Virus record (IMG/VR): IMGVR_UViG_2698536657_000017
Coordinates: 1-35,026 of that record
DNA: 35,026 nt
Origin: a virus
Lineage: Duplodnaviria; Heunggongvirae; Uroviricota; Caudoviricetes
Strand: one strand, 5' to 3'
A program made the position numbers. Positions 1 through 3,000 of the stretch are shown one piece after another (positions within the stretch are counted from its first letter, which is position 1; each line of letters opens with the position of its first letter).

Positions 1-3000
1 TTAGTCTTTATCTGCCGGACTTAAGGTCACAGAAGAGAGATAATTCAGCAGGGCGATATCGTTCTCGACACCCAGCTTCATCATCGCAGATTTCTTCTGG
101 CTACTGATGGTTTTAATACTGCGGTTCAGCTTTTTAGCGATCTCGGTCACCAGGAAGCCTTCCGCAAACAGGCGCAGAACTTCACTCTCTTTTGGGGAGA
201 GACGCTTGTCACCGTAACCACCAGCACTGATTTTTTCCAACAGGCGAGAAACGCTTTCCGGGGTAAATTTCTTCCCTTTCTGCAGCGCGGCGAGAGCTTT
301 CGGCAGATCGGTCGGTGCACCTTGTTTCAGCACGATCCCTTCGATATCCAGATCCAATACCGCACTAAGAATCGCCGGGTTGTTGTTCATGGTCAGAACA
401 ATGATCGACAGGCTTGGGAAATGGCGCTTGATGTACTTGATTAAGGTAATGCCATCGCCGTACTTATCGCCAGGCATGGAGAGATCGGTAATCAACACAT
501 GCGCATCCAGTTTCGGCAGGTTGTTGATCAGTGCTGTAGAGTCTTCAAATTCGCCGACAACATTCACCCACTCAATTTGCTCAAGTGATTTGCGAATACC
601 GAACAAGACTATCGGATGGTCATCGGCAATAATTACGTTCATATTGTTCATGTACTTGTACCTATGTATTAACTATTTGATTTTAAAAATATATTCTATG
701 CTTTGTTTAGTCGTTGGGGCACCTGTGGGACATAAGTACATAGCTTTCTGTTTAGTACTTCTACCTGGGACTGGTTATTGTCTTTCATCCATGCACCGTA
801 AACATTGTAAACCATCTGGGCATTCGCATGTCCCATCTGGTTGGCTATGAAGTTTGGATTTGCTCCGGCAGTTAAAGCCCAGCAAGCATAAGTATGCCGA
901 GACTGATACGCTTTTCTATGGCGAATTTTTGCTCGTTTTAATGCAGATTCCCATGTTCTGTTGATGGATGTTACGGCATAATGAACTCCTGAGTTACCTG
1001 TGCGATCTAATATCTGAGGATTGAAAACAAAGCTGCATGAGTGAGTGCTTGTCCGGCCATACTCTCGCAGCTTTACTTCTATCTGATATTGTTTACCAAG
1101 CCTGGTTAATGTCGCCTGATTTTTTAATACGTCAATTGCTGGCTGTATGAGTTGTATTACCCTGTTTGTTCCTGCATCTGTTTTGGGTAGTGTAAATTCC
1201 TTTGTCTGAGTGTAATTCCTTTTGACGGTCAAGGTACCCGCTTCCAGATCGATATCCTCCCATGCCAGCCCACACAGTTCGCCATGCCGCATCCCGGTAT
1301 ATACAGCCAGCGACCAGAAATTTTTAGTTTGCTGGTGGTGGCACGCATCAATCAGTCTGGCAAACTCATCTTTTGTTAGTGGATCGGGAGGTGTTTTCGC
1401 TCTTTTCAGTGATGGAAGCTCACTGAAAGGGTTTTTGCCTATATACCCATTGTTTGCCGCAAAACGGAACATCCCGGAGATAATTGTCATATAGCTATTT
1501 ACAGTAGGTACACTACGACCTTTAATAGGCTTCCTCTGATTTTTTCCTGGCAACTGATATCCCGTTAATAATTCTTTACGAAAAATGAGAACATCTTCCT
1601 GTGTAATTGATGATGCCAGTTTGTTCCCTCCAAGGCAGTCAAGGCAATTTCGGATAGCTGATTTGTATCTGACCATGGCATTTGCTGTTATTTCCATTTT
1701 CTTAAGCTCAAGCCATTTTTCCGAAAGTGCCTTAATGGTTATCTCTTTTTTTCCCAGACCAAAGTGTTTCAGGTTAGGGGAATTAGGGAACTGCGCGGCG
1801 TAGTCGAAGCTCCCCATTCTGATTGCAAAACAAACGGAAGTACGAAGTTCACCTGCGATCTTCCGGTTTTTGGCGGTGTCAGGAACACCGAGGTTTTCTC
1901 TGACACGTTTGCCGTTATAGTGAAACCATATGCGGAGTGATCCGCCATGGTTTTCAACGCCTGTCGGGTATGATGCGTTACTCATTAAACCTCCCAGACG
2001 TCCAGGAGCATTAACAGGTTAACCGGAACTTGCATTTTTGGCACCTGGTTGTTTCTGGTTTTCGATCCAGCGCATAATTTCCTCAATGTTGTATACACAT
2101 TCACTGAAAGGCCCGGGCTCTCCTTCTGCTGCGTAATGACGGTATTCTTTCCCCAGTAACCAGGATTTTTTTCTTGCTCTGGCAATGGTTCCTGATTTCA
2201 GTCCAGTTGCAGCAATAAGGGTTCTTTCTGTGCACCATTTGCTGGGCGTTATCTGATAGATGATTGTTTCCATTCCTGACTCACACTATCTTCAGGCCAC
2301 GGCAGTGGCACCACACGTCAAACATTCGCTTTACAACTTCACGGCAGTAGAAGCCGTGAGCATCTCTGGTTAAATCGTATCGGTACCCGTATCTGAGTCG
2401 TATCCATATTTCAAACTCGCGATTCACGACTTATTCTCCTGCTGTCTTTATGCCAGTTCATCCGGTTGCGCTGGGGCCCAGGCCTTCCGTGGCCTGTATT
2501 TGCGGCGTTTTCTGGCTTCAATGCGTATCTTTGTCACCCTGACTGGCTTTGGTTCGTGCCGGAACACTTTGTTTCTGATATTACGCCGTGTATTCATCAT
2601 CCAGATAAAACGCTGGGTATGGTCGCATCCGTCATCAACGGTAATTACTGTGCGGACCAGTTCATCGTTAATATCAACCATTTCACCCATTCACTGAGCC
2701 CTCATACGCGAATTTCGTGGCTTCCATCAGTTGCGTCCATACCCATTCAAGAAATTGTGCGTTTTCTCCTGAGCGGTCATATTCATCGACGCTGCGGGGC
2801 TTGATGGTCGCCAGTAGTGGCACAATCCGGTACTTCATCTGTTCGGTTAACTTGTCCGGTACAAGTCGCCAGCCGTTATATTTCGATGGAACATGGTGGT
2901 ATTCAGCCAGGAAGCGTCGTATATCGTTTTTCATTTCCTCGCATGAGTTCTGATCATGAAGTGCAGCGGAAAGCCAGCGTCCGATATATTCAGGGATTCG

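Follow-up and report, generated by a model that had tools for sequence, protein, structure and literature searches.

In a prophage of bacteriophage λ, leftward early transcription through the integrase gene (int) can cross the left attachment junction, attL, into host DNA. For the SpyCI elements of Streptococcus pyogenes, silencing and growth-phase-dependent excision have both been shown experimentally (PMC4689407, PMC3430984), and in strain Manfredo expression of the host gene can come from a promoter within int (PMC3430984). The dusA-associated integrases, found in many genera and with variable cargo, share a single conserved target, which lies in the 5' end of a gene that encodes a protein (PMC4482086). 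The present analysis concerns a stretch of 35,026 nucleotides from a virus of the class Caudoviricetes (IMG/VR record IMGVR_UViG_2698536657_000017, positions 1 to 35,026; the whole stretch is called the window), in which the int gene of a prophage lies directly beside the host gene rcsB. As output regulator of the Rcs envelope-stress phosphorelay, RcsB governs the colanic-acid capsule, flagella and motility, biofilm and curli, GadE-dependent acid resistance and, in enterohaemorrhagic Escherichia coli, the locus of enterocyte effacement.

Positions 640 to 700 of the window are almost certainly the attL junction of a lambdoid prophage (933W-like, stx-negative). The accompanying proposal on expression, in which rcsB becomes the distal gene of a xis-int array and would be transcribed from the phage, is evenly poised between holding and failing. 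Taken as a whole, an explanation that combines an attL at the rcsB start codon with phage-dependent expression of rcsB is considered probable.

The junction between int and rcsB

The rcsB coding sequence is complete and occupies positions 1 to 651 on the minus strand, its ATG being the reverse complement of positions 649 to 651. The encoded protein of 216 amino acids is identical to WP_001061917.1 of prophage-free E. coli. Upstream of it on the same strand, an open reading frame (ORF) at positions 696 to 1985 encodes a tyrosine integrase of 429 amino acids that has an arm-binding domain at its N-terminus in addition to a catalytic domain, and its TAG stop codon is the reverse complement of positions 696 to 698. 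It is followed, in the same orientation, by a gene for an excisionase of the DUF1233/XisR family (positions 2019 to 2273, minus strand), assigned from Pfam and RefSeq. The RefSeq names on identical DNA are rcsB response regulator transcription factor RcsB (WP_001061917.1), tyrosine-type recombinase/integrase (WP_000063634.1) and then excisionase. A preliminary description of the window had int ending 44 bp upstream of the rcsB start codon, with an AT-rich gap between them, and both statements are borne out: the gap spans exactly 44 bp (positions 652 to 695, minus strand) and has a G+C content of 18% compared with 48.9% for the window overall. These 44 bases are the core-proximal P' arm of the phage attachment site, attP, and make up the entire rcsB leader in lysogens; their AT-richness is due to the architecture of an att arm rather than to a host promoter.

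The same description stated that rcsD lies directly upstream of rcsB, that an rcsB promoter is found inside rcsD, and that the prophage appears to sit between the two genes. In the prophage-free genome of strain OkiPb01697, the rcsD stop codon does lie only 16 bp before the rcsB ATG. The literature agrees on the promoter for Salmonella, where the rcsDB operon has a promoter upstream of rcsD (PrcsDB, responsive to SirA and RcsB) as well as a separate rcsB promoter inside rcsD (PMC7241856). The two genes, adjacent in the empty site, are about 63 kb apart in the lysogen JNEC-KY176, a genome that is identical to the window over positions 1 to 3564 and in which rcsD, at the opposite prophage end, is 63,373 bp distant.

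An alignment with a prophage-free locus had been suggested as a check, and it defined both attL and the attachment core. When attL from the window, the empty site (attB) from OkiPb01697 and the right junction (attR) from JNEC-KY176 were aligned, a single run of 11 bp was common to all three, namely TTGTTCATGTA at positions 644 to 654. This core forms a direct repeat flanking the prophage, and the empty site has a single copy. In the rcsB sense, it reads TAC-ATG-AAC-AA, which corresponds to the last three bases of the leader, the start codon and five further coding bases. When 5,426 complete E. coli genomes were searched by megablast with positions 1 to 2000, 14 of them contained the whole junction, while the homology of the 5,363 genomes with an empty site ends at position 654, 3 bp past the rcsB ATG. 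Searching with the attR junction returned the same 14 genomes, and there the empty-site homology resumes exactly at the first base of the core. The preliminary description had also considered the contrary outcome of an intact rcsD elsewhere and a normal intergenic att position. The first part stands, and the site is a regular and conserved one, but it is not simply intergenic, as the core covers three leader bases and eight coding bases of rcsB.

Reconstructed from attL and attR, attP contains ACAAGTAC-ATGAACAAC-GTACTTGT, in which a perfect 8-bp inverted repeat encloses a spacer of 9 bp, and the implied junction is ...AAGTACG-TTGTTCATGTA-CTTGTACC.... The C'-side arm of the repeat, GTACTTGT at positions 652 to 659, is a candidate core-type Int site. 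Strand exchange is predicted to occur within the first rcsB codons because the attP core sits between these perfect 8-bp inverted repeats. Excision would produce a circle carrying attP in the form ...AAGTACGTTGTTCATGTACTTGTACC... and would restore attB as ...ATATTGTTCATGTAATAGGC..., with the ATGAACAA segment as the candidate overlap region within attB. A tRNA-associated attachment site was ruled out, since the window contains no tRNA or tmRNA genes.

Judged from its domains and catalytic residues, the enzyme is a λ-type (heterobivalent) tyrosine integrase acting by attP/attB recombination. It matches PF12167 (Arm-DNA-bind_2) over residues 7-70 (E=5.8e-24) and PF00589 (Phage_integrase) with E=2e-20, and the ORF next to it matches the Pfam excisionase family DUF1233. 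Its catalytic positions could be matched to the solved Tn1549 Int as TGMR(233)HGEL, SR(363)H(364)T and GH(386)...NVY(396). The consensus for integration host factor (IHF), WATCAANNNNTTR, has a single match among the 70,052 positions of the 35-kb window counted on both strands, and this match, AATCAAATAGTTA at positions 670 to 682 (minus strand), is located in the spacer as an H'-like site. A paired GGGGCA/GGGACA motif in the 3' end of int (positions 714 to 733) may provide arm-type Int sites, and a similar pair is found in the P arm at attR. The arm-type, core-type and IHF sites are all assigned by sequence motif.

Fate of rcsD and rcsB in lysogens

The preliminary description raised the possibility of a truncated rcsD and proposed looking for a reconstituted rcsD 3' end beyond the prophage. 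The attR comparison, which was made within E. coli, contradicts the former and makes the latter superfluous. In both the lysogen and the empty site, rcsD consists of 890 codons plus a stop with the same C-terminus and no internal stop codon; the two strains differ by five substitutions in the gene, and rcsD is annotated as intact at attR in all 14 lysogens. No reconstituted 3' end is needed because the crossover is downstream of rcsD, 13 bp past its stop codon. At attR, rcsD is followed by the native 16-bp spacer, the native ribosome-binding site and ATG, and then a stump of eight codons reading MNNVLVAF* (locus L003, 19470-19510). Both a truncation of rcsD and a duplicated rcsD 3' end were rejected on account of the intact gene at attR.

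Turning to rcsB, the protein is the same in lysogens and non-lysogens because the phage core supplies the same bases to the coding sequence. Everything upstream of position -3 is altered: 13 of the 16 native leader bases, including the AAGG of the ribosome-binding site, are exchanged for phage DNA, and the native Shine-Dalgarno (SD) sequence, AAGGT at -15 to -11, is thereby replaced. The insertion divides the rcsDB operon and places both the promoter upstream of rcsD and the one inside it beyond the prophage from rcsB. In the manner of a SpyCI insertion at mutL, rcsB is separated from its own expression signals (PrcsDB, the promoter inside rcsD and the native SD sequence). Given the loss of both native promoters, altered expression of rcsB would be a reasonable consequence.

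Distribution of the site

An index of public assemblies has the exact integrase sequence in 4,046 of its blocks. Nine of the ten assemblies listed carry int, the 44 bp, a gene for the 216-amino-acid RcsB and then a convergent rcsC, the tenth being E. coli FHI_NMBU_10. A search with the integrase protein returned one tight E. coli cluster followed by relatives at 78-82% identity, and those looked up come from Trabulsiella guamensis, Kosakonia cowanii, a Cedecea-like metagenomic contig and an ENA metagenome contig from an enterobacterium. All four of these diverged int genes end exactly 44 bp before a 216-amino-acid rcsB. The arrangement of int and rcsB is no chance juxtaposition, because the same junction occurs in 14 complete E. 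coli genomes and the identical 44-bp spacing in four diverged integrase lineages. When the five 44-nt spacers are aligned, two conserved elements stand out from otherwise diverged sequence. One is the IHF site, which is exact in four lineages and has one mismatch in Kosakonia, and the other is a AGGTRCAARTAC block directly 5' of the ATG.

Among the integrases examined, all those at least 78% identical abut rcsB, while relatives at 75% identity or less have other targets, the yecE type among them at 71-73%. Target specificity in this integrase family therefore changes between about 78% and 75% identity. A 69%-identical integrase in Leclercia adecarboxylata NCTC13032 (locus L024, 3793-4137) adjoins fliE/fliF and not rcsB.

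Proposed expression of rcsB from the prophage

In the proposed mechanism, rcsB mRNA would start inside the prophage, by read-through from int and/or from weak promoters in the int 3' end or the P' arm, and the message would be translated from an SD-like AGGT supplied by the phage. This AGGT lies at positions 660 to 663 on the minus strand, that is, at -12 to -9 relative to the rcsB ATG. It falls outside the 8-bp inverted repeat and is kept in all five integrase lineages. The calculated duplex energy with the anti-SD sequence is -3.7 kcal/mol for the lysogen leader and -3.9 kcal/mol for the native leader. Among the E. coli lysogens, the only polymorphism in the 262 nt upstream of rcsB is an A to G change at -8 (position 659), which gives TAGGTGCAAG (loci L006, L009, L011, L029 and L030). 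The -8 G lengthens the complementarity to the 3' end of 16S rRNA (AGGTG), and the Trabulsiella lineage has the same G.

With respect to transcription, rcsB is the last gene of a co-directional xis-int array, and all ORFs from position ~7911 down to position 1 share the minus strand. Between int and rcsB, neither a terminator-like site nor a stable RNA structure was found (z = +0.9), and positions 2000 to 9400, from the immunity region to int, gave no minus-strand terminator-like site either. As the distal gene of this leftward array, rcsB would be transcribed by whatever transcribes int and would escape its native transcriptional control. Upon induction of the prophage and before excision, it would be over-transcribed from the early-left operon. 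A search for a CII motif of the λ pI kind (TTGC-N6-TTGC) found none near xis or int; the single match, at position 5754, is below chance expectation, and this candidate was set aside. The only sigma-70-like match facing rcsB is TAAACA-18-TAAAAT (positions 680 to 709, minus strand; 9/12), and its function is doubtful.

Several observations weigh against phage-dependent expression. The SD-like match is statistically weak, being equalled by 32% of random 25-mers from the prophage and by 6.8% of shuffled leaders. The yecE-type arm has GGTA at a comparable position, and the phage AGGT may be an inherited, ancestral feature of the arm. For the sigma-70-like match, shuffles of this AT-rich region yield 4.2 sites as good. 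A dedicated P'-arm promoter was rejected, as this single 9/12 match is not conserved in the other lineages and its -10 hexamer overlaps the IHF site. A promoter-like site 887 nt upstream is the only one conserved in position across the five lineages, and was likewise rejected, as it is explained by conserved codons for ELLTG..KNQ. Exact and degenerate junction scans of viral and metagenome contig collections found no excised attP junction, and an integrase-based scan of viral contigs, including the IMG/VR copies, found integrated forms only; the occurrence of the same junction in several genera implies past integration activity only. Finally, the IS-broken rcsB (IS, insertion sequence) present in one of the 14 lysogens could reflect relaxed selection on a gene that is already silent. 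In this strain, E. coli FHI_NMBU_10 (NZ_CP046539.1; locus L004, 2094-3304), an IS3-family element splits rcsB while int and the P' arm are unchanged, and both rcsB pieces are annotated by RefSeq as pseudogenes.

A further and rather unlikely extension is that the phage lineage has captured rcsB into its xis-int unit. Expression could then be low and constitutive in lysogeny and raised by early-left read-through on SOS induction, or integration and excision could act as a reversible off/on switch for rcsB. If true, such a capture would tie the Rcs regulon to the induction of the prophage in Shiga toxin-producing E. coli (STEC) and other enterobacteria.

Alternative explanations

One alternative holds that the site is a neutral landing pad, used only for the invariance of the first rcsB codons, with adventitious transcription keeping rcsB near normal and no regulatory significance attached to it. 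In keeping with this, the core lies within ATGAACAATATGAACGT, which is invariant across genera in the five-lineage alignment, and the insertion leaves both host ORFs whole, a usual property of att sites that keep harm to the host low. How common the exact integrase is among public assemblies also argues against a strong fitness cost. Unchanged regulation is unlikely, however, when every known cis-regulatory input to rcsB, PrcsDB as well as the internal promoter, has been removed, and this explanation is thought possible without being favored.

A doubtful alternative is a silencing switch, in which integration imposes a polar block, lysogens have little or no RcsB, and excision restores rcsDB. 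The precedent is SpyCIM1, which sits at the 5' end of mutL and prevents its transcription (PMC4689407, PMC3430984). The absence of both native promoters and of the native SD sequence, a P' arm without a conserved sigma-70 promoter, an IHF site over the sole candidate -10 hexamer and the disrupted rcsB of FHI_NMBU_10 would all fit a silent gene. In addition, natural loss-of-function mutations of rcsB are described as widespread in STEC (PMC10562709), such that a loss of RcsB is evidently tolerated. Against silencing, only one of the 14 complete lysogens has a damaged rcsB; the other 13, like all nine further assemblies examined, carry the gene intact and identical, and in the four other lineages it retains its full 216 amino acids. 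An SD-like AGGT has been kept at a working distance in five lineages, and any transcription of int would reach rcsB in a junction that lacks a terminator. The missing consensus promoter is itself weak evidence, as a promoter inside the SpyCI int rescued the downstream gene in one strain (PMC3430984).

The remaining alternative, a disruptive insertion that truncates rcsD and breaks the Rcs phosphorelay, is suggested by the window alone, where no rcsD sequence is present upstream of rcsB, and is extremely improbable in view of the full-length rcsD at attR, which has an unchanged C-terminus and no internal stops, ends 13 bp short of the crossover and is annotated as intact in all 14 lysogens. The preferred reading remains a conserved attL at the rcsB start codon coupled to expression of rcsB from the prophage.

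Other features of the prophage

The complete E. coli genomes in RefSeq do not include the exact source of the window; 2013C-3033 comes closest, with 96% coverage and 99.0% identity over 25 kb. By subtraction of coordinates, attL and attR are ~25 to 65 kb apart among the 14 lysogens. The distance is only ~25 kb in STEC2018-553 (NZ_CP075665.1) and ~42 kb in DETEC-S792 (NZ_CP116067.1), with the others at ~61-65 kb, which suggests that these two prophages are internally deleted derivatives.

In Stx phages, stx is located between the Q antiterminator gene and a gene for a NanS-p-like esterase. The window contains Q at positions 13480 to 13929 and a NanS-p-like esterase at positions 19158-21068, and no ORF of StxA size was found between Q and the esterase and lysis genes. 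The slot between Q and the esterase (14459-17139) instead contains a 694-amino-acid N6-methyltransferase with a weak VRR-NUC match and a 178-amino-acid ORF resembling a Type I S-subunit. As the slot after Q has no stx-sized ORF, the assignment as a Stx-converting phage was rejected.

At the right end of the window, an open frame at positions 33062-35026 runs past the boundary; its product is collagen-like, with G-X-Y triplets in uninterrupted runs of up to 32. The motif ...TTQKG(I/V)... is present in it twice, and the protein is presumably a tail fibre. In JNEC-KY176, the 63.4-kb prophage carries cargo near attR that includes an S6-family (SPATE-like) autotransporter peptidase, two YadA-like adhesins, a Lom-family protein and Hok (NZ_AP045172.1, 1896241-1915956). 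Transcription from rcsD in this strain would enter the cargo region in antisense.

Novelty and significance

Full-text searches, with supplementary tables outside the search, found no literature in which phage attachment is assigned to rcsB or to the rcsD-rcsB junction. The rcsB site would add a new attB to a known family of integrases; the junction can be seen in public annotations, so it may have been named earlier. Unusually, the gene whose start codon takes the crossover encodes a global regulator and lies within an operon. This prophage family swaps every cis-regulatory input of rcsB while the gene itself is kept intact. Its members are found at the site in other genera as well as in E. 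coli, where a sizeable number of public assemblies have one, many of these from Shiga-toxigenic or clinical isolates. Natural variation in rcsB has already been linked to STEC phenotypes, and a strain-specific rewiring of the Rcs system is predicted. Analyses of gene content would miss such rewiring because rcsB, rcsC and rcsD all look intact. There is also a practical aspect for annotation. The prophage contigs predicted in IMG/VR end exactly at the rcsB stop codon (loci L029-L031), and prophage-calling pipelines count the host rcsB as a terminal viral gene.

Comparison with known systems

The closest integrases in the phage collection are those of the yecE type, represented by Stx2_12E129_yecE (LC567842.1), phage YYZ-2008, phage 258-320 and EH297, with 71-73% amino acid identity over the full length. 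Both types have an excisionase of the DUF1233 family, the paired GGGGCA/GGGACA motifs in both attP arms and nearly the same distance between the int stop and the core (40 nt in the yecE type and 41 nt in the rcsB type). At the DNA level, the int gene in the window is a mosaic. Its first ~310 nt (window 1689-2000), corresponding to the arm-binding domain, are ~95% identical to yecE-type int genes; the rest has no megablast match in the phage collection, and an rcsB-type int is absent from the deposited phage records. The attP of LC567842.1 follows a similar pattern, being nearly identical in the P arm until ~14 bp from the core, unrelated across the core and then partly similar again. The yecE-type core, annotated as a 21-bp duplication of TCCACGCAGTTAATGTGACGG, is unrelated to the 11-bp TTGTTCATGTA of the rcsB type, the target is yecE rather than the rcsB start, and the core-binding and catalytic part of Int has diverged. 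With both core and target differing, membership in the yecE-type group was rejected. The rcsB type looks like a sister lineage in which the arm-binding domain and P arm have been retained and the part that recognizes the core has changed, and it offers a clear natural example of an integrase lineage changing its target through an exchange of the core-binding and catalytic part together with the core.

The likeness to λ is one of architecture. Both have a heterobivalent tyrosine integrase with an N-terminal arm-binding domain, an int gene directly beside attP with the P' arm overlapping its 3' end, an IHF site in the P' arm (a candidate here), inverted core-type sites around a short overlap and a separate excisionase. 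In sequence, λ Int is only distantly similar to the enzyme in the window (E about 2e-4 to 9e-4 against PDB chains), and the λ attB is intergenic, between gal and bio, whereas the present one is at a gene start. The dusA-associated integrases belong to another family and have another target gene. Their target is inside the coding region, whereas the rcsB crossover is at the start codon and exchanges only the non-coding leader.

By analogy, SpyCI at mutL is the closest functional precedent. The two systems differ in that SpyCI is a Gram-positive chromosomal island rather than a full lambdoid phage, and their integrases are unrelated at the level examined. In each case, two genes are co-transcribed (mutS-mutL in S. 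pyogenes and rcsD-rcsB here) and the element integrates site-specifically at the 5' end of the second, with the int gene adjoining this host gene and the gene cut off from its upstream promoter.

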